Source: a virus (lineage: Duplodnaviria; Heunggongvirae; Uroviricota; Caudoviricetes). From it: a stretch of 64,000 bases of DNA. The notes under the pieces were generated by a model that was given only the letters and a program-made list of their open reading frames with translations, made no database searches and was not told the origin of the DNA. Where the stretch lies: IMG/VR virus record IMGVR_UViG_3300021138_000001; one strand, given 5' to 3'. Within the stretch, counting starts at the first letter, position 1, and each line of letters opens with the position of its first letter. The translations under genes were made by a program, and so were the position numbers. Positions 3,534-45,717 of this stretch are shown piece by piece.

Positions 3534-4691
3534 ATGGCAGGTAAGAAAAATATTAGTGCGGAAACTCTAGATGAAGTGACTGCATCAGACGGCATCAGCC
3601 ATACTGCTGATCCGTATGCATCTGGGGATTCATCACGTTCTGCTGACAAGAGTGCTGGAGAATCAAGCTATTCTTCTTCAACAAAGTCTGAAGTACTTAG
3701 CGCCATCATGAATCATATTGGTGGTTTAGATAAGGGCGCTCTAGGTAACATTTATAAGGGTCTTCAAGGCGCTTCTGGTTCAGCTACTCGTGCAGCCGAT
3801 AAGTCTGGTGGAGAAGGTTCACAATTGCGCATTTCAGTTTCAGACGCAGACCCAGTAACTGGCGCAAAACTAGCAAACGCTGGTGGTTCTGCTCCAACAA
3901 CACATAATACAACAACCGGTAAGGGTGAAAGGGGGCAAATTCGCCTTTCACCAACTTCAGTAGTTGCTAAGGAAGACGTAGAAGAAATTTTTGGTGGTGA
4001 TGAGCTATCAGAAGAACTAAAGGAAAAGGCAACTGTAGTATTCGAAGCGGCAATTAGTGCTCGCCTAGTTTCAGAAGTTGCTCGTCTAGAAGAAGAATTT
4101 GAAACACGTCTTGAAGAATCAGTAGAATCAATTCGTGGAGAAATTGTTGAAAATGTAGATAAGTATCTCTCTTATGCCGTTGAACAGTGGATTGAAGAGA
4201 ACCAAGTAGCTATTGATACCGGATTAAAGAACGAAATGGCAGAAGAATTTATGTCTGGCCTAAAGAGTCTATTTGAAGCAAATTATATCGACATCCCAGA
4301 AACTAAGGTCGATGTAGTTGCTGAAATGGTAGAAAAGATTGAAGAACTAGAGCTTCGTCTAAATGAAGAAATCGAAAAGAACATTTCTCTACAAGAAGAA
4401 ACAGAAGTTCTTCAAGTAGAAGAAATTTTTTCAACAGCGGTAGAAGGACTAGCAAAGACACAAGCTGAAAAGCTTCGTGATCTAGCAGAAGGTATTTCTT
4501 ACCAAACTGTAGAAGAATTTGAAAAGAAAATCAATATCATTAAAGAAACTTACTTCCCATCATCACAAAAGTCAACTTCAATTACTACACTAACAGAAGA
4601 AGTTGGATATGATGATGAAGAAGTATCAGATTCTGCAACCGGTCCAATGGCTGCTTATATTCAAGCCGTATCTAGACAAGTCAAAAACTAA
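3534..4691 (+). CDS. gp22: Prohead core scaffold protein
   Basis: Acidic coiled coil, VDKYLSYAVEQW and FMSGLKSLFE motifs; between gp21 and gp23. Confidence 0.93.
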   Translation: MAGKKNISAETLDEVTASDGISHTADPYASGDSSRSADKSAGESSYSSSTKSEVLSAIMNHIGGLDKGALGNIYKGLQGASGSATRAADKSGGEGSQLRISVSDADPVTGAKLANAGGSAPTTHNTTTGKGERGQIRLSPTSVVAKEDVEEIFGGDELSEELKEKATVVFEAAISARLVSEVARLEEEFETRLEESVESIRGEIVENVDKYLSYAVEQWIEENQVAIDTGLKNEMAEEFMSGLKSLFEANYIDIPETKVDVVAEMVEKIEELELRLNEEIEKNISLQEETEVLQVEEIFSTAVEGLAKTQAEKLRDLAEGISYQTVEEFEKKINIIKETYFPSSQKSTSITTLTEEVGYDDEEVSDSATGPMAAYIQAVSRQVKN

Positions 4692-4696
4692 ATTTC

Positions 4697-4704
4697 TATA
4701 AATA
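4697..4704 (+). promoter_or_regulatory. T4-type late promoter TATAAATA
   Basis: Exact motif upstream of gp23. Confidence 0.85.
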
Positions 4705-4736
4705 TAATTGACCCAATAAGGAAAAGGGAGAGAAAA

Positions 4737-6086
4737 ATGTATCTAAACGAGGAAATTCAAAAGAAGTGGAAGCCACTAATTGAGCACTCTGAGCTTGCTC
4801 CAATTACTGACTCACACAAGCGTTCTGTAACCGCTCAGCTTCTAGAAAATACAGAAGCTGCTATGGCTCAAGAAGGCGGATCATCTTTCGGTTCACTACT
4901 TGAAACAACTGGTGGTTCTCCAACATCACTAACCGGCGGTTCAGCTAACTACGATCCAGTACTTATCTCACTAGTACGTCGTGCTCTACCAAACCTAATC
5001 GCATATGACATCTGCGGCGTTCAGCCAATGACAGGTCCAACCGGCCTAATCTTTGCTCTACGTCCACAGTATGACTCACAGTCAGGTGCAAACGCATTCT
5101 ACTATGAAGCCAACACTGGACAATCAACATATGGCATGGGCGCTCTTAATGGCTCACAAGCTGTTGGTAACACCGCTGGTAACTGGGGTGGTATCTATGC
5201 TGTTAACACTTCAACTGTTGTTTCAGGCAGCAATACTACATATAACTTCGCTGGTGGTGCTAACACAGCCGTTGCCGAAGCTCTAGGTACTTCTGGTGGT
5301 GCTAACCTTGACTTCAATCAAATGGCCTTCTCAATCGATAAGGTCACTGTTTCTGCCAAGTCACGCGCTCTAAAGGCTGAGTATTCAATCGAACTAGCAC
5401 AAGACCTAAAGGCAATCCATGGTCTAGACGCCGAAACAGAACTTTCAACAATTCTATCTGCTGAAATTCTGTCAGAAATCAACCGCGAAATTGTTCGTAC
5501 AATCAACCTAACAGCTACAGCCGGTGCTGCTGATACTACATCAGCCGGTACTTTCGATCTAGACGTTGACTCAAACGGACGTTGGTCAGTTGAAAAGTTC
5601 AAGGGTCTAATGTTCCAAGTTGAACGCGAAGCTAACCTAATCGCCAAGAATACACGTCGTGGTAAGGGTAATATCCTAATCTGTTCTTCAGATGTGGCTT
5701 CTGCTCTACAAATGGCTGGCGTTCTAGATTACGCTCCTGCTCTAAACTCAAACAACCTACAAGTTGATGACACTGGCAATACCTTCGCCGGTATTCTAAA
5801 CGGACGCATTCGCGTTTATGTTGACCCATATGCTGGTGGTCATTATATGACTGTTGGTTATAAGGGTGCATCAGCATTCGACGCAGGTCTATTCTACTGC
5901 CCATACGTTCCACTACAAATGGTTCGTGCAGTTGGACAAGACTCATTCCAACCAAAGATTGGGTTCAAGACTCGTTACGGAGTTGTTGCTAACCCATTCT
6001 CACGTGGTGCAAACGGTTCAGACGGTACACTAGTACAAAATGTAAACGTTTATTACCGCCGCGTGTTGGTAAATAATATCCTATAA
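4737..6086 (+). CDS. gp23: Major capsid protein
   Basis: LVRRALPNLIAYDICGVQPMTGPTGLIFA, KSRALKAEYSIELAQDLKAIHGLDAE, YCPYVPLQM motifs. Confidence 0.99.
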   Translation: MYLNEEIQKKWKPLIEHSELAPITDSHKRSVTAQLLENTEAAMAQEGGSSFGSLLETTGGSPTSLTGGSANYDPVLISLVRRALPNLIAYDICGVQPMTGPTGLIFALRPQYDSQSGANAFYYEANTGQSTYGMGALNGSQAVGNTAGNWGGIYAVNTSTVVSGSNTTYNFAGGANTAVAEALGTSGGANLDFNQMAFSIDKVTVSAKSRALKAEYSIELAQDLKAIHGLDAETELSTILSAEILSEINREIVRTINLTATAGAADTTSAGTFDLDVDSNGRWSVEKFKGLMFQVEREANLIAKNTRRGKGNILICSSDVASALQMAGVLDYAPALNSNNLQVDDTGNTFAGILNGRIRVYVDPYAGGHYMTVGYKGASAFDAGLFYCPYVPLQMVRAVGQDSFQPKIGFKTRYGVVANPFSRGANGSDGTLVQNVNVYYRRVLVNNIL

Positions 6087-11057: not shown

Positions 11058-11459
11058 TTATTTTGATATGGCTTTTAGGTGAACTTCGGTTATCTTACAA
11101 GAAACCCATGAATTATAATAGGTTTCATTTAACAATGCGTCTTCAGCAAAAATAAACTTGGTTTCATAATAGGCACATTCAGATCGGTTTTTACATAACC
11201 TAAGGATTTCTCGATGAAATCCTTCTTTACCATATTTTTGGATATCTGCTAATAAATATTTTGATGATCCAAAATAGGTTTTCCAATCAGACTCTTTTCT
11301 GATTTTTTTCTTTTTACCATTGACTTGTTTTGTTCCGGCCAGGGTAAAGTATTTCCTGCCAATATACTGTTTTCCAGTAGTGGTGTGGGTTATTCTATAA
11401 ACAAAACCGTATGCGCCATTTGGGTCTTCAAATTCAGACCCATTATAAAACCAAGTCAC
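11058..11459 (-). CDS. Stand-alone GIY-YIG (Seg-like) endonuclease
   Basis: GFVYRIT....GKQYIGRK, YFGSS, REIL..C, YYETK..F, YN motifs. Confidence 0.8.
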   Translation of the reverse strand: MTWFYNGSEFEDPNGAYGFVYRITHTTTGKQYIGRKYFTLAGTKQVNGKKKKIRKESDWKTYFGSSKYLLADIQKYGKEGFHREILRLCKNRSECAYYETKFIFAEDALLNETYYNSWVSCKITEVHLKAISK

Positions 11460-11605
11460 TCTTCGTAGTAATACTCGGAATCGGAATCATCTTCATCAAC
11501 GAATTCTATATCTGAACCACAGAATGGACAATAATCCACCGAAGGTCCAGTATCAGAAATGACTCTAAATTCTTCTTCGCAACTGTTACAGGTAATCCAT
11601 TTCAT
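11456..11605 (-). CDS. Small zinc-ribbon protein, 49 aa
   Basis: MKWITCNSCEEEF...CPFCGS; coupled by TAATG and GTGA overlaps. Confidence 0.7.
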   Translation of the reverse strand: MKWITCNSCEEEFRVISDTGPSVDYCPFCGSDIEFVDEDDSDSEYYYEE

Positions 11606-13880: not shown

Positions 13881-14107
13881 TATTCCTCTACTATTCTAAA
13901 TGCTTTTCTAGACACTATTGTATCATAATTACGGCCCTTAAGTCTAATCAAAAGACCATCACCTATACCAGAATATTGATGAGCAGATTCTACTTCCCAT
14001 ACTATACCAATTTCGCTCCACCATTGCGGATCATTAAATGTAATTTTCGTTCCTGGTGTAATTATTAAATCTTGCATATCATATTTTCCATGTTTTAAAT
14101 AGTACAA
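13880..14107 (-). CDS. Hypothetical protein
   Basis: 75-aa ORF coupled between nrdA-c and nrdB. Confidence 0.55.
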   Translation of the reverse strand: MYYLKHGKYDMQDLIITPGTKITFNDPQWWSEIGIVWEVESAHQYSGIGDGLLIRLKGRNYDTIVSRKAFRIVEE

Positions 14108-15099
14108 CTATCACAATTTTCTTCGTCAGTGTCACCTTTCGCCAGTTCTTCTACCCTCATTTCACCAGCACCATCATTCGTATTATTATAATAAAGCGTC
14201 TTAATACCATACTTATATGCCATCAAAATATGCTTTAACATTTCCGATAATGGAATCTTTTCATCAGGATAGAACTTTGGATTATAAGAAGTATTAGTAG
14301 AAATAGATTGGTCAATCCACTTTTGTAATACAGCCATAATCTTTAGATATCCTTCTGGTGAAGATTGGTCCCACAGAAGTTCATACTTATTTTTAAGTTT
14401 GCGCACTTCGGGAACAACTTGCTTTAATACACCTTCACGAGAACTCTTAATCGACACTAAAGCACGCGGAGGTTCAATTCCATTTGTAGAATTAGACACT
14501 TGAGCAGAAGTTTCTGCTGGCATTAGAGCCATTAGAGTAGAGTTACGAATGCCGTATAGATCAGCTTCTTCACGAAGAAGATTCCAGTCCATGGACACAG
14601 GACGCGAAGTTAATTCATCAACCTCCTTCTTATATGTATCTATAGGAAATTGGCCATGCCCATACTTAGTTTCATACCACTTATCACAGGCTCCCTTTTC
14701 TTTGGCTAGATCAATAGAAGCTTTAATTAGATAATAAGACCAAGCTTCTGTATATTGGTCAATTAAATCTAGATTGGGATTAGTATAGGTCATATCGTTC
14801 TTAGCCATCCAATATGCTAGATTGATAATACCAATACCTAAAGGGCGACGATTCATTGTAGAAAGTTGTGCAGCAAGAACAGGGTAACTCTGATAATCAA
14901 GTAGAGCATCAAGAGCGCGTACTGCTAGAGTACAGGGCTTTTCAAAATCAGATGTCTTTTTAATTTTACCCCAATTTATCGCACTCAAAGTGCATAAGCT
15001 AATCTCAGATTTACAATCCGATTCAAATATATCAGTCACATATACATGATCTGAATCATCATGATCAATATTATCAACAATTTCGTATTTAAAATTCAT
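14095..15099 (-). CDS. nrdA: Ribonucleotide reductase alpha subunit, C-terminal fragment (nrdA-c)
   Basis: EISLCTLSAINW (Cys462 equivalent), RRPLGIG, MPAETS, KTLYY, terminal CDSC; own AAGGA RBS. Confidence 0.95.
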   Translation of the reverse strand: MNFKYEIVDNIDHDDSDHVYVTDIFESDCKSEISLCTLSAINWGKIKKTSDFEKPCTLAVRALDALLDYQSYPVLAAQLSTMNRRPLGIGIINLAYWMAKNDMTYTNPNLDLIDQYTEAWSYYLIKASIDLAKEKGACDKWYETKYGHGQFPIDTYKKEVDELTSRPVSMDWNLLREEADLYGIRNSTLMALMPAETSAQVSNSTNGIEPPRALVSIKSSREGVLKQVVPEVRKLKNKYELLWDQSSPEGYLKIMAVLQKWIDQSISTNTSYNPKFYPDEKIPLSEMLKHILMAYKYGIKTLYYNNTNDGAGEMRVEELAKGDTDEENCDSCTI

Positions 15100-15691
15100 T
15101 ATATTTCCTTATATGTTTAGTGAAATTTCCTAAATCCCATTCTTTGTGACAACACACACAACATATTTTTTTACCCTGTAAATGAGATGTTCCATTTGGT
15201 GCTTTTTTGAGATTATATTTGCCTCGTTTTTTATTTAATTTAGATTTTCTCATTTTTTCTTTAGTTTTATCAGAAATGTGAATAACTCCACGCAAACCTT
15301 TATTCCAAGGAGTCTTTCCTTTCTTACTTAATGAAAGTTTTTTTCTATGTTCTATTGTTTGAGGTCTTTTAGGTATACCTTTTTGTGTTTTGCTAATTTT
15401 ATTTTTATGTTCTTCACTTAATCCCATTTTAGATGGGTTGTTTAGTTTCATTCTATTAGATGTATTTAAAGGGTGTTCTTTTGATTGCCAATAATGATCA
15501 TTATGCTCAATTTTATTTTTTTGTGCTTTAGAAAGGGTTTCTCTTACTTCTAACGATCTAATTTTTCCTTTATTGCTTTTAGATATTTTATCTGCGGTGG
15601 AAGAGCCTTTAACAATTCGTCCTAAAGAGGGCGAGATTTTATTTACAACGGCTTTGCTATTATTCCAAACTTCCCAATCATCTTTATACAT
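15089..15691 (-). mobile_element. NUMOD3-repeat protein (homing-endonuclease-like, no recognisable catalytic domain) inserted in nrdA
   Basis: Repeats SEEHKNKISKTQKG, TIEHRKKLSLSKKGKTPWNKG; C-terminal CxxC...GNFTKH. Confidence 0.7.
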
Positions 15692-15707
15692 TAGTTTAGT
15701 ATTAATA

Positions 15708-16703
15708 TCAGATTCGTATTTTTTTGCTTTTAATTGGGGTATTGGGATTTGATTTTTTCCATTCTAAATACTTTTTATATTCTTCTTTAGTCAGTTTCAT
15801 TACTTTAACTATTGGACTACCGTCTTTCAGATCATTTAATGGCTTAGTTGGAAGGGTAATTTCGGCGCAAAGATTTGATTGGCGAATTGGTGCGACTTCA
15901 GATAAAAATGAACCGTGATCATTACAATGATCCACATTCATTAGATATACACGTCCAGTATCCTTCCGTTCTTGAACAAATGATGAGAACATGTCAATTG
16001 CGGGTACTTGCTTTTTTCGCAGCTTTGGGTTGCGTTCTGCGCGCTCATATAATTCTCTAAATTTATTTGAGTCTACAAAGAATGCTTCATAGAGTTCTGG
16101 TACGTCATGGGGACTAAAGAGTGTGATATTTCCACCATTAATAAGTCGCTCATACATCACCTTATTGAATTGTACACCATAATCTAGATGTCGAATCCGG
16201 TTATCTTCAGTACCTTTATTATTTTTTAGGACTAAAAGTTCCTCCGCTTCCAAGTGCCAGATTGGGTAATATAATGTAGCCGCTCCTCCACGGACCCCCC
16301 CTTGAGAATTGTGAGTAAGAACCATTTCTGATTCTGGAGAATTTGCAGCAAAAAAAGTGTGTGTGTCTTCTACAGTAATATCAATATAATTAATTGAAGT
16401 ATTTCCTTTAGATACACTAATAATTTTAGTATGATTATTATCTGTTAAGATTTTATCAGAAAAAAGTAAATTATCTGGCAATACTGTAAATTGCATATTG
16501 TCTTTTTCAATCATTATTGGGTGATTTTTTGAACAATTTAATTCAGTTTTATTGTCAAAAATAAGAGTTCTTTGATCATCTATGCAAACTTCAGTTTCCC
16601 AAATGTCAGTTACAGTTTTAAAAACAACATTTTTGTTGGCATCTAAAGTTTTAATTTTCATACCAACTACCAAATCTTTTAGTTGAATTTTTTTAGTTTT
16701 CAA
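15708..16703 (-). CDS. nrdA: nrdA middle fragment (nrdA-b) preceded by 132-aa intein C-fragment
   Basis: TTG start after AAGGA; CSKNHP (block B), DITVEDTHTFFA (block F), THN|SQGGVRGGAATLYYPIW; QSNLCAEI (Cys439/Glu441 equivalents). Confidence 0.93.
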   Translation of the reverse strand: MKTKKIQLKDLVVGMKIKTLDANKNVVFKTVTDIWETEVCIDDQRTLIFDNKTELNCSKNHPIMIEKDNMQFTVLPDNLLFSDKILTDNNHTKIISVSKGNTSINYIDITVEDTHTFFAANSPESEMVLTHNSQGGVRGGAATLYYPIWHLEAEELLVLKNNKGTEDNRIRHLDYGVQFNKVMYERLINGGNITLFSPHDVPELYEAFFVDSNKFRELYERAERNPKLRKKQVPAIDMFSSFVQERKDTGRVYLMNVDHCNDHGSFLSEVAPIRQSNLCAEITLPTKPLNDLKDGSPIVKVMKLTKEEYKKYLEWKKSNPNTPIKSKKIRI

Positions 16704-17526
16704 TTTTATATTCCTTGATTTGCGGCTTATCCCAATTATGATATTGTATCATATGTTTACTAAAATTACCAAGATTATATTTTTTATTGTTATTACAATC
16801 AAAAGGACAAGCTCTATATTTATTTTTATCATTCATCGCACAATCAACACCATACTTTTCTATGTTTGTTTTTTTGCTTTTAAAATTTCTGTCTGTCCAA
16901 TCTTTTTCTTCCATAACTTTTTTATGTGTTTCTTTTGTTTTTTTATCAAACATCATATTTGTTACCCCATGTTTATCAAACATAACTTCTGATAATTTTT
17001 TTGGGTTTTTAAATGGGTTGTCTGTACCATATATTGTTTCTATAGAATTTTGTCTTGGAGTTTTTACTATATCTAAATCTAATGTATGGTGTTTTCCATA
17101 TTTTTTTATATTTGTTTTATATATTTTATCTTTTATTATTTTTGATCCTGATCCCCTTGAACCATATTTTTCTATTAATTTTGTATTTACTTTTTCTTGC
17201 ACTTTATCAAATTCAAAAGGAAATGGTCCTTCTATATTTAATGGAACCATATTATTATTCCATCTATTTAAATATTTTTTATTGTTTGGTATGTTTAATT
17301 TTTTAAGAACTTTGGTTTCCCATAATAATGCTGAATTCTTATCTTTAAAAACTTTTCTAATTTCTATTAGATTTGGTTCTCCATGTTTTTCAATAAACAA
17401 TTTTACATATTTTGAAGATGACATATAGGTACTGCCAATGTCTTCTAATTTTGCTTTTTTTGAATACCTAACTCCATAATAATATTTGTCTTGTTGTGTC
17501 CATCCTAGTAAATAAGTATAATACAT
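16693..17526 (-). mobile_element. GIY-YIG-variant homing endonuclease inserted inside the nrdA intein
   Basis: YYTYLLGW...YYYGVRY, YMSSS, WETKVL, YLN; TATAAATA at 17545-17552 and AAGGAG RBS. Confidence 0.85.
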
Positions 17527-17575
17527 ATTTTTCTCCTTTATACTTATTTATAGTTTTCTCTAACGCCACCCTGGC

Positions 17576-18481
17576 TTATTCCTCAATAACTTCGACCCAG
17601 GTTTCTGGAGTAAGACAACACGATTTAACAGCACTTTGAAAATGTTTATAAAAAGGTATAACTCCAGTATGACTAGCGTCACCATTACGAATGGGACTGC
17701 CAATAGCCCTAATACGACCAGCACCAATACCAATCCCAGCCTTTTGACTAACATACTTAACGACTGCTGCAGATGTTGCATTGATGGAATCGAGTGAGTC
17801 ATCAGTTTCGATAAGGACACATGAGCTAAACTGCCTTTGAGGCGTGCGAACTCCAGCCATAATAGGAGTAGGAAGGCTAATATCAAAAGTGCTAATGGCA
17901 TCATAAAATTCCTTTACCCATTTAAACCGATCTGTTGTGTATTTTGAAAATAGAGTCATTGCGATAAGAATGAATGACATTTGTGGTGTTTCATAGAACT
18001 TGCCCGTTACGCGGTTCTTAACAAGATACTTACCGCGAAGTTGTTCCATTGCCGCATAAGTCAGCAATTCGTCCCGAGAATGATCAATCAATGTGTCAGC
18101 AAACTTCCATTCGTCTGCAGTATATGCATCGAGTAGCTGACGATCATAATAACCTTCCTTTACTACATGTACGACATGAGTATATAGATTATCAGGAGTA
18201 AACCTACCATAAACTTCCTTACGAAGATTATAATTGATTAGGCGTCCCGCAACATATTGATAGTTTGGATGTTCTTCAGAAATCAATTCGGCAGTAGCCT
18301 TAATTAGAGTTTCTTGAATATCGGTTGACTTAATATTATTATAAAACTGAATCTGTGATTTAATTTCAATTTCAGATACAGATACTCCAGATAGACCTTC
18401 ACATGCTTGTTCAACTACCTTATGGAACTTGTTTAGATTTAACGGTTCTTTTGTTCCGTTGCGCTTAGTTACATTAATCAT
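17576..18481 (-). CDS. nrdA: nrdA N-terminal fragment (nrdA-a, ATP cone) ending in 13-aa intein N-fragment
   Basis: VTKRNG ATP cone, PTPIMAGVRT, SSCVLI, FQSAVKSC|CLTPETWVEVIEE-stop. Confidence 0.95.
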   Translation of the reverse strand: MINVTKRNGTKEPLNLNKFHKVVEQACEGLSGVSVSEIEIKSQIQFYNNIKSTDIQETLIKATAELISEEHPNYQYVAGRLINYNLRKEVYGRFTPDNLYTHVVHVVKEGYYDRQLLDAYTADEWKFADTLIDHSRDELLTYAAMEQLRGKYLVKNRVTGKFYETPQMSFILIAMTLFSKYTTDRFKWVKEFYDAISTFDISLPTPIMAGVRTPQRQFSSCVLIETDDSLDSINATSAAVVKYVSQKAGIGIGAGRIRAIGSPIRNGDASHTGVIPFYKHFQSAVKSCCLTPETWVEVIEE

Positions 18482-36198: not shown

Positions 36199-36762
36199 TT
36201 AGAACTTAGCCTTTAGGTAAGCACCAAGCACGTTGCTTGTTGAATCGCCACTATTATGATAATAGGCAAGACCAACACCATACTTCTTAGTTAGTGCGTA
36301 TTCAGCAGATACTTCTTCACGAGTTACTCGATTGCCAATACCACCATTACCATTAAAACGCTGACGATAGCCAAGAGTTACGGTTAGGGGTTTAATTGGT
36401 GTCTTAGAAGTTACTTGACCTTCTAGACCATAGAACTGTGAAGCCTTACCTAGACCTTCAACTGTGCCATATTCGACCCGTGGCTTTAAAGTTAGAAAGC
36501 CTACTGGAACGACTGCGCCAACCTTAGAGATTAGCTGCCCAGAAACAGCCCCCTTGCCATTGGCTTGGGTTAGATTAGCCTCTACTGAATATCGGAAAGT
36601 GTCACCAAAAACAAAATTGTTGAACTCGGTCTTCACAGTATCTGACTTAGCTGACTTAGCAGCAGTAGTTGCATTTTCATTGTACTCAACCTTGAAATCA
36701 CCAGCATGAGCAGCAGTTGCAGTCAGAGCTAGAGTACCTAGAGTTACTAGTAGTGTCTTCAT
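36199..36762 (-). CDS. Outer-membrane beta-barrel protein with signal peptide
   Basis: Signal MKTLLVTLGTLALTATAAHA, alternating beta strands, terminal YLKAKF. Confidence 0.75.
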   Translation of the reverse strand: MKTLLVTLGTLALTATAAHAGDFKVEYNENATTAAKSAKSDTVKTEFNNFVFGDTFRYSVEANLTQANGKGAVSGQLISKVGAVVPVGFLTLKPRVEYGTVEGLGKASQFYGLEGQVTSKTPIKPLTVTLGYRQRFNGNGGIGNRVTREEVSAEYALTKKYGVGLAYYHNSGDSTSNVLGAYLKAKF

Positions 36763-36823
36763 ATTATAAGTCTCCATTATTTCTCTTAGCTTAACGGGTA
36801 AGAGATTGCCGTATAAAAATGAA

Positions 36824-37012
36824 CTATAATTTTGTCCATTTTGATTTGAATATTTTTTTACATACCAGTCTATGTATAAATGGTACATTATTTATGAATT
36901 GTATGTTAATTTTACCATCACCAAAGAAATCCATATTCCATTTATACTTTATAGGATTTAGGATTCTTAAAGAACCGGTATCACCGGGAACACTCCACTC
37001 AGAATCACCCAT
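36824..37012 (-). CDS. Hypothetical protein
   Basis: 62-aa ORF between regA and OMP gene. Confidence 0.5.
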   Translation of the reverse strand: MGDSEWSVPGDTGSLRILNPIKYKWNMDFFGDGKINIQFINNVPFIHRLVCKKIFKSKWTKL

Positions 37013-37027
37013 AATATATTTTAGCCT

Positions 37028-37423
37028 TTATTTTTGTCCAATATTATATTTAGATTGTAGATTCCAAGAATTCTTATCTTTAAATGAGACAACTTTAATT
37101 TGGCTTATTGTTGCAATTGGTTCTTGCGACTTGTTTGGGTTTACTAAAACAACAAGATTCCATTCAGCAAGAAGATTAGCAATCGTATTTCTACGAGCCT
37201 TATCGTTATCAGAAAAGTCAGTACTCTTTCCATCTAAAGCAAAAAGTTCTTTGAAGTGCGTTATATAATATCTTCCCTGCTTATGTAAGATATGGCATGA
37301 CTGATATAGAGTATTATCTCTACGAGAAGCAACGCCAATACGAGAAAGGGTTTCCTTAACCTTTAGAAAGTCATCCTTATCTTTTAAGGTTACTTCTATC
37401 ATAGAAGTAATCAAATTACTCAT
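37028..37423 (-). CDS. regA: Translational repressor RegA
   Basis: DDFLKVKETLSRIG.A....LYQSCHILHKQGRYYI.HFKELF. Confidence 0.96.
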   Translation of the reverse strand: MSNLITSMIEVTLKDKDDFLKVKETLSRIGVASRRDNTLYQSCHILHKQGRYYITHFKELFALDGKSTDFSDNDKARRNTIANLLAEWNLVVLVNPNKSQEPIATISQIKVVSFKDKNSWNLQSKYNIGQK

Positions 37424-37811
37424 TTATGCCACCTTGTTCTTGTCTTTTTCTTATAACTGCAAGTTGAGCATCAGATAAAATAGAAATAGCCTGTTTAGCC
37501 TTTTCATTATTATATCCATAATAAGATTTCACCAATTCTAAATCATCTTCTGATACTTTCTTGACCCATTTGGCAAATCGCTTTTTGGGTCTGATAGTAT
37601 TTAGAAGATAATAGAATTGAAGTTTTCCACCCAACGCTGGATACATATTCATATCATTAGCATAAAACAAGGTGTCTGTAAAGTAAGACAATCCTTTATT
37701 TACAATCCACGCATTATATTCCTTTTCTATACGAGATGGATCGTCAGAGTCTCTGATTAAATCCACCTTGGTATTAGAAATCGCATTGACGAAATCAAAC
37801 GGATTTGCCAT
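37416..37811 (-). CDS. gp62: Clamp loader small subunit
   Basis: PFDFVNAI, YNAWIVNKGLSYF.D, IRPKKRF.KW.K. Confidence 0.93.
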   Translation of the reverse strand: MANPFDFVNAISNTKVDLIRDSDDPSRIEKEYNAWIVNKGLSYFTDTLFYANDMNMYPALGGKLQFYYLLNTIRPKKRFAKWVKKVSEDDLELVKSYYGYNNEKAKQAISILSDAQLAVIRKRQEQGGINE

Positions 37812-38542
37812 TACTTAAATTCGCAATCTGCCATAATTTCTGTTAGACATGCCATTAGATTAATTTCTTGGTCCGCAACAAAAGCAGCCTTATATTGATA
37901 CTGCCCAATATAAAGAACTAGTTGTGGAATAGAATCCTTAGCCATAAATTCAGAAGAAGCGTCATATAGCTTTCGGAAAAGTTCTGTAGAATCTTGGTCT
38001 GAGTTTTCAGCAACCCACTTACGAACCATTGGAAAGTTCTTATCTTTTAGAAATACAATAAGAGCCTTAAAGGATTCTTCACCCAAATTAACAAGAATGC
38101 CCGAGTCAATCTTTCCTGTGGCTGAGTAACGTTGAAGTTCATTCAGAACTCTACGCCAATCTGGAAAATACTTCATAATAATTGCCGCAACAGCTTCATT
38201 ATCAAAAGCCACAGTTTCTCGGTTCAGAATTATCTTTGTGCGCTTCATAAACTGAGCGGCAAGTTTTGGCATATCTGACTTTGAAATTTTAAAATTGATT
38301 ACTGAACACCGAGAGTGTAGGGGCTCGATAATACGATTAAAGAAGTTACATGTCAAGATAAATCCGCAATTGATGGAATATTCTTCCATAAAATTACGAA
38401 GTGCTGGCTGAGTTGAGTTGCAGTTATGAACAACTACTCCGGTCCCCGTAATAAAAGTATGATTTTTCTTTACCGTAACATCAACAACATTTCTATAACC
38501 AATCGGTATAATACTTTTCACATTTGAAACATCATAATTCAT
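37811..38542 (-). CDS. gp44: Clamp loader large subunit C-terminal part with 40-aa intein C-fragment
   Basis: VVDVTVKKNHTFITGTGVVVHN|CNSTQPALRNFMEE; FILTCN, PLHSRC, FPDWRRVLNELQRY. Confidence 0.93.
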   Translation of the reverse strand: MNYDVSNVKSIIPIGYRNVVDVTVKKNHTFITGTGVVVHNCNSTQPALRNFMEEYSINCGFILTCNFFNRIIEPLHSRCSVINFKISKSDMPKLAAQFMKRTKIILNRETVAFDNEAVAAIIMKYFPDWRRVLNELQRYSATGKIDSGILVNLGEESFKALIVFLKDKNFPMVRKWVAENSDQDSTELFRKLYDASSEFMAKDSIPQLVLYIGQYQYKAAFVADQEINLMACLTEIMADCEFK

Positions 38543-39386
38543 AATTAATATCGCCGTCCTTTTTTGTGGTAGTTTCACGCCATTTCGATATTCTTTGTTT
38601 CTTTTTTTCTTCAGATTCTTTTAATCTATATAATTTTTGGCTGTCTGATATTTTTTTCTTAACTTCTGGTGTATTAGTATTGGGTGTGTTTTTAACTAAG
38701 CCTTTTAACCAACCATCTGGTATAATGTCATTTGATCCAAACATCTTACCCATTTTAGTTAAAGGATTATGATAACAAACTTTACCCTTTTTACTATCTG
38801 ATATCTTCGTATTAGGTCCTCTTTTTTTTGAAAGTCTATTTTTAGGATATGGTTTAGGAACCCATTGTGAACATAGTTGAATTCTATCATTTAACAACTT
38901 TAAAATTCTTTTATATGATCTATTTCTATTCATTAAAATTTTAATATATTTCTCAAGAATAGGTATTTTAGATGGATGTAGTTTAAAATTTTTATTTCTA
39001 ACGTTTTTAATTAAATTTTGTAAAGTTTTGGTTCTTTTTACTTTTTCACGAATTTTACCTATTTTCATAGGATTTTCATCAAATTTTTTAAAAGCAGGCG
39101 CACAATGTGCATTCAAGAAATGTGGGTTTTTGTGTACTTTTACTTTACTCAAAAACTTATATTCATGTAAAATTGCATCATCTATATTATCAAAAACCCT
39201 ACATATTTTTATTATATCGGGGTTACCATTATTTTTTACAAATTCTTTAACTATAGTAGAAGATGTGAAATATTCAACCCAAATATCACCAACATATGAT
39301 TTTTTAGATATTCTGACACCATAATACCAAATTTTATATTTAGACCAACCTATAGCATAAGTATAAGGTTTATAGATTTTATTCAT
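38532..39386 (-). mobile_element. GIY-YIG-variant homing endonuclease between gp44 split-intein halves
   Basis: PYTYAIGW...WYYGVR, YFTSS, HEYKFL, FLN; late promoter 39409-39416; GGAG RBS before ATG 39386. Confidence 0.85.
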
Positions 39387-39433
39387 GATCGACTCCATAT
39401 TACAAATCTATTTATAAGATGAAGCCGATTATT

Positions 39434-40066
39434 TTAATCCTTTTCGATAATTATTTTAAATTCGTCTAAACCTTCACTTATTGTTCTAGTAACGATATTA
39501 CCTTCCTTATCTTGACAGATTAGTGGATGATCTTCTGTACATCGGATTGTTTTTCCACATTCAAGCACAATTTCATAGACCATTTTATTTGTTCTATTCG
39601 CTATTTCTGCAGTATCTTCTTCAAAAATGTGTGTTTCGGTATTAAAAGAAATCACATTATATTCTAGGCCGTCTTTCATATCGCCAAGACGCACGAGTTC
39701 GCCGTTTGAAAGTTTAATAAATTCGTTCTCATCTAGACAGTTTAGATAATCTGCTTCGTCAAGAATTACATATTTACGGCCACCAGAAAAAGAAACTGAT
39801 GATGCGAAGTTTTGAATTTCGGTACGTAAGGTATCGATGTTACCATTCATCGATCCGTTGATTACGATATAATCACAACCAAGTTCTTCTAGCATAGCTC
39901 GCGCTACTGTAGTCTTACCTACACCAGCAGAACCACATAGAATTAGATTTGGAATATTCTTATTGTCTACAAATTGCTGAAACATATTCTTCAAATCCTC
40001 TGGAAGAATAGTCTCAGCAATTGTCTTTGGGCGATATTTTTCACACCACAAAAATTCATCATTCAT
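39434..40066 (-). CDS. gp44: Clamp loader large subunit N-terminal part with ~101-aa intein N-fragment
   Basis: WCEKYRP, GSAGVGKTT, ILDEADYLN|CLDENEF...IRCTEDHPL. Confidence 0.94.
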   Translation of the reverse strand: MNDEFLWCEKYRPKTIAETILPEDLKNMFQQFVDNKNIPNLILCGSAGVGKTTVARAMLEELGCDYIVINGSMNGNIDTLRTEIQNFASSVSFSGGRKYVILDEADYLNCLDENEFIKLSNGELVRLGDMKDGLEYNVISFNTETHIFEEDTAEIANRTNKMVYEIVLECGKTIRCTEDHPLICQDKEGNIVTRTISEGLDEFKIIIEKD

Positions 40067-40098
40067 AATATAAATTACTCCACTAAAACATTATACAA

Positions 40099-41334: not shown

Positions 41335-41409
41335 TGGTCCGGGTGGCTGGGATTGAACCAACGACCCCTCGCTCCCAAAGCGAGTGCTCTACCTCTGAGC
41401 TACACCCGG
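41335..41409 (-). tRNA. tRNA-Pro (UGG)
   Basis: TT-TGG-GA loop, 7-bp acceptor stem, CCA. Confidence 0.95.
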
Positions 41410-41464: not shown

Positions 41465-41539
41465 TGGAGGCTTGACCGAGAATCAAACTCGGATAGAAGG
41501 TTTTGCAGACCTTTGCATAAATCATTCTGCCATCAAGCC
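41465..41539 (-). tRNA. tRNA-Cys (GCA)
   Basis: CT-GCA-AA loop, GGCTTGA/TCAAGCC stem, CCA. Confidence 0.9.
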
Positions 41540-41636: not shown

Positions 41637-42239
41637 TTACAATTTGCATTTTTTCTTATGAATTGTCATTGGACCTTTAGTTGTAATTAATCCACAATTA
41701 CATTTTATTTTTTTATTATTAATGCTATTTATGCTTAAAGACGAAGCTTTACCAGCAATTCCAGTCTGAAATCCAGATGTTTTTAGTTCTCCAGTTTTTC
41801 TACCGCCATTACCGGTCTTATTATATTTTAATAAATTTGTTATAGCAACTTTACCACCAAGATGACCATAAAAACTTCTTTCTTCTTTAGAAAATGTACT
41901 AAATTTAGATATTCTTTTGTTTTTTTCATATGTCCAATTTAGTCCATGTTGATTAATATAACCAAATCCACCTTGGCCACCAACACACATATTATAAGTA
42001 TCTTCTCTTAAACAAAATTCTTCAGAAACTAATTCTTTTTCTTTAATATTCATTTCTTCTTCATTATCAAAAATGAATAAAAATTCTTTTACAAAATTTT
42101 CAATACCATATTTTTTAATAGCACGTTTAAGATGTTTCCCAGAACCCATATAATTGTCATTTATATTTTTAGTTTGGTGTTTACCAATATAAATCTTGTT
42201 ATCTAATATATTAGTAATTTTATATATAGTGTAAAACAA
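41637..42239 (-). mobile_element. Seg-like GIY-YIG homing endonuclease in tRNA cluster
   Basis: YTIYKITN.L..KIYIGKHQT, YMGSG, E..L, YN motifs; TTG start. Confidence 0.88.
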
Positions 42240-42901: not shown

Positions 42902-42977
42902 TGGCTGGATAGACAGGGCTCGAACCTGTGACATTCTGGTTAACAGCCAGACGCTCTACCAACTGAGCTACTATCCA
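42902..42977 (-). tRNA. tRNA-Asn (GUU)
   Basis: CT-GTT-AA loop, canonical arms, CCA. Confidence 0.95.
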
Positions 42978-44914: not shown

Positions 44915-45641
44915 TTAGGTTTTATTCACACTTCTATAGAAATTTACTCTTCCGGTTTTATATCCCAAATTTAAATGTTGATCAACATTTTTTTGTTTAA
45001 TTCTAAAATTTTTATTATTAAAATTCATCCAAACAGTTTCTTTTGCAACATTTATTTCTAAACAAGCGTCTTTGTGTTTTTGTTTTTTTATAGGATCATT
45101 AAATTGTTCTTTTGTTTTATTTCTAAGATGTTCTCTATTTGATCCATCTACCATTCTTTTTTTGTTTATAATACGTAAATTATTTTTTTCTTGTTCTGTT
45201 ATATGTCTACCGTATCTTTTTTTACGTTCTTCCACAGAAACAATATCTTTAATTGATATTCCTTTATTATGGGGTGTTTGTCCAGGCTTAAATCTTCCAG
45301 AGTTTATGTCTTCCGATTTTACAATTTTTCCAGTAGTGTTTCTACCGTTTAGATATTTCTTATTGTTTTCTGCATTTATTTTTTTTTAAAACGGTTTGTT
45401 CCCAAATAAATGCAGAATTACAATCTTTAAATATTTTTCTTATTTGAATAATATTTGGAGAACCATGTTTTTCTGTATATTTTTTTACAATTTTACTCGA
45501 AGTAAAATATGTTATCCAAAGATCATTTGGGTGACATCCTTTGGCATAACGAACACCGTAATACCATTTATTTTCAGAAGACCATCCGATTAAATATGTA
45601 TAGGGTGTTCTATCCGTTGATGTGTGTTTATAAATAACCAT
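44915..45641 (-). pseudogene. Frameshifted GIY-YIG-variant homing endonuclease
   Basis: PYTYLIGW...WYYGVRY N-terminus; frame breaks in A9 run (45379-45387); one A fewer continues KKINAENNKKYLN into the 44915-45235 ORF; late promoter 45705-45712. Confidence 0.8.
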
Positions 45642-45717
45642 GCTGATTCTCCTAAACAGAATTAGAGTAGGTGGGATTCTTGGGTGTCTCCGCGACCTAC
45701 ATTCTATTTATAAAGAA

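Follow-up and report, generated by a model that had tools for sequence, protein, structure and literature searches.

Organization of the gene 44 locus

We analysed a 64,000-nt stretch of DNA (hereafter the window) from a T4-like freshwater phage, IMG/VR record IMGVR_UViG_3300021138_000001, in which gene 44, encoding the clamp-loader large subunit gp44, occupies positions 37811-40066 on the minus strand. The open reading frame (ORF) listing showed three consecutive ORFs there. The first carries the N-terminal part of gp44 followed by an N-terminal intein half (IntN), the second is an endonuclease gene, and the third carries a C-terminal intein half (IntC) followed by the remainder of gp44. Because their positions on the phrog_168 and Intein_splicing profiles are complementary, the first and third ORFs represent complementary halves of both the clamp loader and the intein. 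The features of the locus, in the direction of transcription, are as follows (lengths in amino acids, aa; MFE, minimum free energy).

39740-40066, minus strand: gp44 N-extein, residues 1-109, ending ...YLN (phrog_168 positions 5-113, E 3e-43)
39437-39739, minus strand: N-intein (IntN), 101 aa, with block A CLDENE and block B CTEDHP (Pfam Intein_splicing positions 3-84)
39388-39429, minus strand: RNA hairpin before the endonuclease gene, predicted MFE -17.2 kcal/mol
38532-39386, minus strand: putative homing endonuclease gene, free-standing and of GIY-YIG (Seg-like) type, 284 aa when read from ATG 39386, assigned by fold and motifs
38423-38542, minus strand: C-intein (IntC), 40 aa, with blocks F and G, ending VVHN (Pfam Intein_splicing positions 121-155)
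37811-38422, minus strand: gp44 C-extein, 203 aa, Cys+1 first (CNSTQPALRNFMEE...), stop included (phrog_168 positions 115-314, E 9e-67; Pfam Gp44_lid)

The first ORF as listed spans 39434-40066 (210 aa); IntN ends in ...IIIEKD, and the stop codon lies at 39434-39436. The endonuclease ORF was listed as 38532-39398 (288 aa), with a start at 39398 that falls inside the hairpin stem and has no Shine-Dalgarno (SD) sequence, and ATG 39386 is the start common to homologues. The third ORF was listed as 37811-38578, and comparison with homologues placed its real start at ATG 38542 (MNYDVSNVK...). The gp44 identity was established by the P-loop (GSAGVGKTT) and Walker B motif (VILDEAD) of the N-extein, matches to Pfam AAA, Gp44_lid and phrog_168, and the presence of gp62 downstream. 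An uninterrupted relative matched T4 gp44 structures with an E value of 6e-47.

Splicing residues and colinearity with uninterrupted gp44

All residues of a class-1 splicing intein were present, namely Cys1, the TxxH motif (T177 and H180), the terminal His-Asn pair and Cys+1. Cys1 is Cys110 of the N-fragment (39739-39737) and directly follows the N-extein. In block B (CTEDHP), T177 was nearly invariant and H180 invariant in the N-fragment alignment. IntC ends in ...NHTFITGTGVVVHN and is followed by Cys+1; this HN|C arrangement was kept in each of the six fractured loci that were aligned, and ten more loci show it as well.

Removal of the intein would leave 109 + 203 = 312 aa, the size of the uninterrupted relatives, and the alignment revealed neither a gap nor a surplus residue. 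The N-part of these 312-aa relatives was 83-88% identical to the window's gp44, and extein identity to uninterrupted relatives was 88% (N) and 63% (C). The relatives read DEADYLN-A-NSTQPALR at the junction, and an uninterrupted gene 44 allele reads DEADYLNANSTQP; the predicted spliced junction peptide is DEADYLN-CNSTQPALR (...DEADYLNCNSTQPALR).

The split site is canonical. Residues 1-98 of IntN and 8-40 of IntC aligned to residues 1-101 and 114-146, respectively, of a contiguous 146-aa relative (the mini-intein of locus L012, one of the IMG/VR loci that we designate by L numbers), and the stretch absent from the window's halves, residues 102-113 of the L012 intein, corresponds to the canonical split point. 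Both halves could also be aligned to the halves of Npu DnaE. The nearest solved structures to IntN by sequence were the DnaE, NrdJ-1 and gp41-1 inteins (best E 7e-5), with alignments to PDB entries 4lx3_A, 4kl5 and 7qil, and the best PDB match of IntC by sequence was the Spl DnaX mini-intein (E 0.023). IntN is acidic (net charge -12) and IntC slightly basic (+2). Between loci, the nonsynonymous divergence (dN) of the intein halves was 0.26-0.57, while the synonymous divergence (dS) was saturated (>1), so that dN/dS can be read qualitatively only; the halves thus appear to evolve under constraint.

A preliminary description of the window, made from its letters, had given coordinates for the locus (37811-40066) and both intein halves (IntN 39437-39739, 101 aa; IntC 38423-38542, 40 aa), and these were exact. 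Its canonical split agrees with the alignments above, its fractured-gene architecture with an endonuclease between the halves was borne out, and colinearity with uninterrupted relatives favours the junction that it predicted. It had placed the break at the Walker B motif; the break (DEADYLN|C) is three residues after the DEAD box, not within it.

Recurrence of the fractured gene

A search of 5.8 billion proteins retrieved 25 clusters of N-fragments with the same architecture and junction, 24 of them beside the window's own. These fragments were 202-217 aa long, with an IntN of 99-105 aa, and were 53-69% identical to that of the window. The junction read DE(A/S)D(Y/F)LN|CL in the 25 clusters, and the catalytic positions Cys1, T177 and H180 were kept in every one (25/25). 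Degenerate DNA patterns located the same junction on 16 IMG/VR contigs. Recurrence in 25 clusters and 16 contigs far exceeds chance.

The residue at position +1 distinguished interrupted from uninterrupted alleles. In 93 uninterrupted close relatives among those listed it was Ala in 88, Pro in three and Ser in two, and never Cys, whereas it was Cys in every fractured allele whose C-fragment was read. This restriction of Cys+1 to interrupted alleles is what selection for a nucleophile of splicing would leave behind.

Four freshwater metagenome runs (2012 and 2016), distinct from the likely source run, yielded Logan contigs that cover the locus at no less than 99% identity. Single bridging contigs spanned 37275-38912 (gp62, gp44 C-extein, IntC and nuclease), 38786-39761 (nuclease, IntN and Cys1) and 39295-40087 (nuclease start, IntN and gp44 N-extein), and none of the Logan contigs from the four runs joined across the intein. 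The only contig joint, from 37610 to 37914 (side 22), was rejected as too short to trust, and it would not remove the intein. A diverged phage co-occurs in runs X2, X3, X4 and X6; its contigs matched only positions 38378-38410 (33 bases, the CNSTQPALRNF region) and, upstream of these, gave the sequence of an unbroken gene 44 (...EADYMNINS...). Since such contigs come from the same runs, potential intein-free targets share the habitat.

The intervening endonuclease

Pfam and PHROGs searches with the endonuclease itself gave no match. A full HMMER search yielded 2827 representatives at E <= 1e-3, which have in common the first ~100 residues of the protein. When 41 diverse members were aligned, Y14, Y25, G27, E79 and N96 proved invariant or nearly so, and R29 was invariant among the seven closest relatives. 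The resulting motif, YTY (12-14), YYG (25-27), R29, E79 and N96, corresponds to the GIY-YIG pattern Y-x10/11-Y-x-G...R...E...N. Pfam matches among the 41 family members were to SegE_GIY-YIG (3/41) and NUMOD3 (12/41).

An AlphaFold model (AF2) of the protein had a mean predicted local distance difference test (pLDDT) score of 86.5. Residues 9-99 of this model superposed on the I-TevI catalytic domain (1ln0_B) with a Z of 7.8 and a root-mean-square deviation of 2.9 A over 84 of 94 residues (VIA-align). Foldseek with the whole model returned no match at E <= 0.001; its top ten hits were all GIY-YIG domains, yet with E > 0.3. From the VIA-align Z, which is middling, taken together with the motifs and the Pfam matches of family members, we read the gene between the gp44 halves as a putative Seg-like free-standing GIY-YIG homing endonuclease. 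GIY-YIG is one of the two nuclease types in the fractured genes described in 2009 (PMC2677866).

Further members of this endonuclease family were observed in the window. A paralogue lies inside the nrdA split intein (16696-17547), and another at 45363-45707 on the minus strand is a 115-aa N-terminal piece (E 9e-49) that seems to result from truncation or a frameshift. Near nrdB, at 11061-11486 on the minus strand, there was a further, weak match (E 3e-6).

Hairpin, late promoter and translation signals

The hairpin at 39388-39429 occupies the 47-nt gap between the IntN stop codon and the endonuclease start. Its z-score was -4.4 to -4.9, and none of 200 shuffled sequences was equally stable. 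The SD sequence of the endonuclease, GGAG (39393-39396), lies in the 3' arm of the hairpin, 6 nt before ATG 39386. The hairpin also encloses a T4-type late-promoter box, TATAAATA (39409-39416), which follows the 5' arm of the outer stem. Loci L001-L006 and L027 have a hairpin of like design with different stem sequences. Across six related loci the stems had changed yet still paired, as in L004 (AAUCAGCCUCGUUUG/CAAACGAGGCUGAUU) and L006 (UCGGCCUCAUUUG/CAAAUGAGGUCGA), and more distant loci carry variants of the design. At its 3' end the endonuclease gene, with its stop codon, overlaps the IntC ATG by 11 nt. In several relatives a well-placed GGAG or AGGA precedes the IntC start.

Proposed mechanism and alternatives

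On the observed anatomy, motifs, colinearity, folds, conservation and recurrence, we consider it highly probable (roughly 85%) that gene 44 of this T4-like freshwater phage is a fractured gene, carrying a split class-1 intein and a GIY-YIG nuclease, whose products are trans-spliced to a 312-aa gp44. The splicing activity, homing and timing of the following scheme are what we infer from these observations. A class-1 intein would have interrupted the essential ATPase gene 44 three residues past the Walker B DEAD box, and the intein itself would have been cut at its canonical site by a free-standing GIY-YIG gene. Two polypeptides would be made, gp44(1-109)-IntN and IntC-gp44(110-312). The acidic IntN (-12) and the slightly basic IntC (+2) would associate into the intein fold, in which Cys1, TxxH, the terminal HN and Cys+1 would drive protein trans-splicing, and the resulting 312-aa gp44 would join gp62 in the clamp loader. 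The mobile agent would be the endonuclease, which presumably cuts intein-free gene 44 in co-infecting relatives and would be copied in together with the intein halves. In read-through (early or middle) transcripts, the ribosome-binding site of the nuclease would be paired in the hairpin and its translation held back; the late promoter within the hairpin would give transcripts that lack the 5' arm, from which the nuclease would be translated late.

Several points weigh against this scheme. The SD-like sequence before the IntC ATG, AGGA, lies 14-15 nt away, beyond the usual spacing, which bears on early translation of the C-fragment. The Pfam Intein_splicing scores of the separate halves were under the whole-domain cut-off of the family, as expected where each ORF holds only half an intein. 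The sequencing runs listed for the stretch include no RNA run, so splicing is argued here from sequence. Finally, the search for a second gene 44 covered 64 kb of a ~156-kb genome. In favour of the scheme, an intact gp44 elsewhere, which the preliminary description had named as a finding that would speak against it, was not found within those 64 kb, and a related fractured gp44 belongs to a 97%-complete genome (that behind L009), in which the two fragments were the only clamp-loader matches.

The same anatomy could also be produced by intein halves that are splicing-dead, with the gp44 pieces held together non-covalently as a two-chain subunit. Such a two-piece enzyme is known in T4-like phages from Aeh1 nrdA (PMC2677866), and the window's own nrdA, described below, also has an intein-free break. 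However, the catalytic residues are all kept across at least 25 diverged lineages, and interrupted alleles carry Cys+1 where uninterrupted ones carry Ala, Pro or Ser, both of which argue against a dead intein; an unremoved intein would, moreover, leave ~140 residues beside the ATP site. We therefore regard a two-chain gp44 as improbable.

We give a somewhat lower chance still to splicing as a phage switch beyond selfishness, in which the redox state of Cys1 and Cys+1, or when one fragment appears relative to the other, would control assembly of the clamp loader. Inteins do cluster at ATPase motifs of replication proteins, where regulatory roles have been proposed (PMC4760082), and both nucleophiles of the gp44 intein are cysteines. 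Nothing in the sequence requires such a switch, however; close relatives manage without the intein, and the decay or loss of the nuclease in some lineages is what is expected of a selfish element. Least probable of all is that the locus is decaying, with clamp loading supplied by the host or by another copy in the part of the ~156-kb genome beyond the 64 kb searched, since both exteins are intact (88% and 63% identity to uninterrupted relatives, dN far below dS), many lineages keep the arrangement and have gp62 and regA immediately after it, and the related 97%-complete genome holds only the two gp44 fragments.

States of the gp44 intein and a second insertion site

Public viral contigs revealed four states at the exact insertion site of the window: a contiguous intein, a split intein with an intact nuclease, one with a decaying nuclease and one whose nuclease is lost. 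Two intein clades occupy this site among the 16 IMG/VR contigs. A free-standing nuclease ORF on the same strand separates the halves in the window and in 14 of the 16 loci, and most of the 16 combine a split intein with an intact GIY-YIG gene. The gene is decayed in two of the 14: in L002 (1048-1880) by a TGG-to-TGA nonsense codon, and in L024 (1942-2295) by reduction to a C-terminal remnant. In L026 (4067-4160) the nuclease is lost, and a remnant, VPEGWILGNK, is fused in frame before the C-intein. L025, on a 306-kb contig, encodes a 463-aa gp44 with a contiguous 144-aa mini-intein. A word-based search for longer proteins containing the IntN region found none, a weak negative since the DNA pattern scans did find contiguous forms.

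A second insertion site, ILDE|C, lies inside the DEAD box, five residues upstream of the window's site. It is occupied by split forms in L007-L010 and L014 and by contiguous forms in L012, L013 and L015. In the split forms (L007, L008 and L014; L009 and L010), the intervening ORF of 306-341 aa is PD-(D/E)xK-like (FRSSWE...PDF...YE(I/L)KP), not GIY-YIG. The 534-aa ORF of L011 (oriented 3954-5558) begins with a long C-intein-like stretch ending HHN|T before the P-loop region and has a contiguous intein at ILDE|C; its product would be a clamp loader bearing two inteins, of which one has an atypical split.

The gp44 of locus L012 (10263-11699, minus strand) is 478 aa long and contains a contiguous mini-intein of 146 aa (ILDE|C...THN|CERLS). 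Among contiguous inteins this one is nearest to the window's, with 38% identity to IntN (E 1e-18) and 55% to IntC (E 6e-10). In a maximum-likelihood tree, unrooted and of 16 rows, L012 was sister to the window's intein clade (support 96/90) despite its other insertion site. This grouping would imply that an intein lineage changed its insertion point, which we offer as a lead, not a result. To our knowledge, such a change has rarely been documented, and the gp44 loci offer many sequences for testing it. We suggest tentatively, at somewhat less than even odds, that the gp44 Walker B region may serve as a natural laboratory for the origin and movement of split inteins, including a change of insertion point by one lineage.

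The nrdA split intein

The preliminary description referred to another split intein in the same window, and one is indeed present in nrdA (14095-18481, minus strand), with an IntN of 13 aa. This gene is in three pieces. Piece 1 ends in the 13-aa N-intein CLTPETWVEVIEE and is followed by the paralogous GIY-YIG gene; piece 2 begins with a 131-aa C-intein ending THN|S. Between pieces 2 and 3 lies a NUMOD3 endonuclease gene without intein motifs.

No significant similarity was found between the nrdA and gp44 inteins (tblastn E 2.5 and 0.06; hidden Markov model E 0.044), and they are split at different points of the fold, 13 + 131 aa in nrdA and 101 + 40 aa in gp44. Because the cuts differ, a half of one intein paired with a half of the other would leave most of the fold either missing or present twice. 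Among published split inteins, members of different families are for the most part orthogonal in any case (PMC7090010). The earlier statement that the phage must keep the two inteins orthogonal in one cell is thus true, but no special adaptation would be needed, as they are unrelated and split elsewhere.

Gene context

Downstream of gene 44 lie two further genes.

37416-37811, minus strand: gp62, clamp-loader small subunit (Pfam Phage_clamp_A, phrog_225)
37028-37423, minus strand: regA, after gp62 (Pfam Translat_reg)

The upstream neighbours are an exonuclease gene, tRNA-Pro, tRNA-Cys, a second homing endonuclease gene, tRNA-Asn and gp45. The neighbourhood is a T4-type replication module. The second homing endonuclease gene (41637-42239, minus strand) matched phrog_314 with an E value of 2e-38, and the Pro, Cys and Asn tRNA genes lie at 41335-41409, 41465-41539 and 42902-42977, respectively. 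Together, this endonuclease gene and the three tRNAs separate gp45 from gene 44, whereas in relatives gp45 directly adjoins gene 44.

An ORF at 36199-36888 on the minus strand has an internal signal-peptide-like start (MKTLLVTLGTLALTATAAHA) and a C-terminus reading ...YLKAKF. A PHROG search with it gave no match; from its sequence, the product looks like a small outer-membrane beta-barrel protein. Similar ORFs occur near gene 44 in L002 and L005.

Comparison with known systems

Fractured genes were described in 2009 by Dassa, London, Stoddard, Schueler-Furman and Pietrokovski (Dassa et al., PMC2677866) in gp41, IMPDH, DnaE, NrdA, NrdJ, DNA ligase and terminase hosts, with inteins including gp41-1, gp41-8, NrdJ-1, IMPDH-1 and NrdA-2. 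The gp44 locus has in common with them a GIY-YIG nuclease, a hairpin with the TATAAATA late promoter before the nuclease, an overlap of nuclease and C-intein, and an origin in environmental T4-like phage DNA. It differs in its host protein, gp44, and in an insertion point that is new for phage proteins. The terms 'gp44', 'clamp loader' and 'RFC' have zero occurrences in the text of PMC2677866, and full-text literature searches that combined intein with gp44 or with clamp loader, or were aimed at split inteins of T4-like metagenomes, returned no paper on a phage gp44 intein. The layout has thus been known since 2009; what is new is the host gene, gp44, and the arrangement is common in uncultured phages.

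In cellular clamp loaders, contiguous inteins are known from archaeal RFC-S and from cyanobacterial PolIII gamma/tau (DnaX), in the latter immediately after Walker B (Novikova et al. 2016, PMC4760082), and these may or may not contain an internal LAGLIDADG nuclease (bioRxiv 10.64898/2026.09.14.751524). Like gp44, their host proteins are AAA+ clamp loaders, and the inteins sit close to the ATP site; the DnaX intein is described as having a Cys+1. Unlike them, the gp44 intein is split, resides in a phage and is accompanied by a separate GIY-YIG gene.

The nrdA-a / mobE / nrdA-b arrangement of Aeromonas phage Aeh1 (Gibb and Edgell), in the accounts of it within PMC2677866 and PMC2988022, likewise has a free-standing homing endonuclease splitting an essential T4-like gene and a hairpin that hides the ribosome-binding site, with a late promoter inside. 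As described in those accounts, it differs in having no intein, an HNH-type nuclease and pieces that stay non-covalent. The naturally split Npu/Ssp DnaE inteins resemble that of gp44 in their canonical split (~100 + 36-40 aa), in having both Cys1 and Cys+1, and in pairing an acidic N-half with a basic C-half. In contrast, the two DnaE halves lie at distant loci of cyanobacterial genomes and no nuclease gene intervenes, and the similarity of the gp44 IntN to DnaE is remote (E 7e-5 to 3e-3).

Significance

Naturally split inteins from phage loci of precisely this type (gp41-1, NrdJ-1 and IMPDH-1) now rank with the most widely used tools for protein ligation, as in the orthogonal sets of PMC7090010. 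The gp44 family would add dozens of diverged, canonically split Cys1/Cys+1 candidate pairs from mesophilic freshwater phages. With gp44, the clamp loader enters the set of phage replication proteins that inteins target at an ATPase motif, which parallels the clustering of inteins at such motifs in cells (PMC4760082). The range of states at one gp44 site makes it possible to test the 2009 gene-breaking model from sequence. In terms of phage biology this is an ordinary selfish element, and knowledge of clamp loading is unchanged; the main value of the finding lies in a new source of split inteins and in a many-state series for the study of intein evolution.

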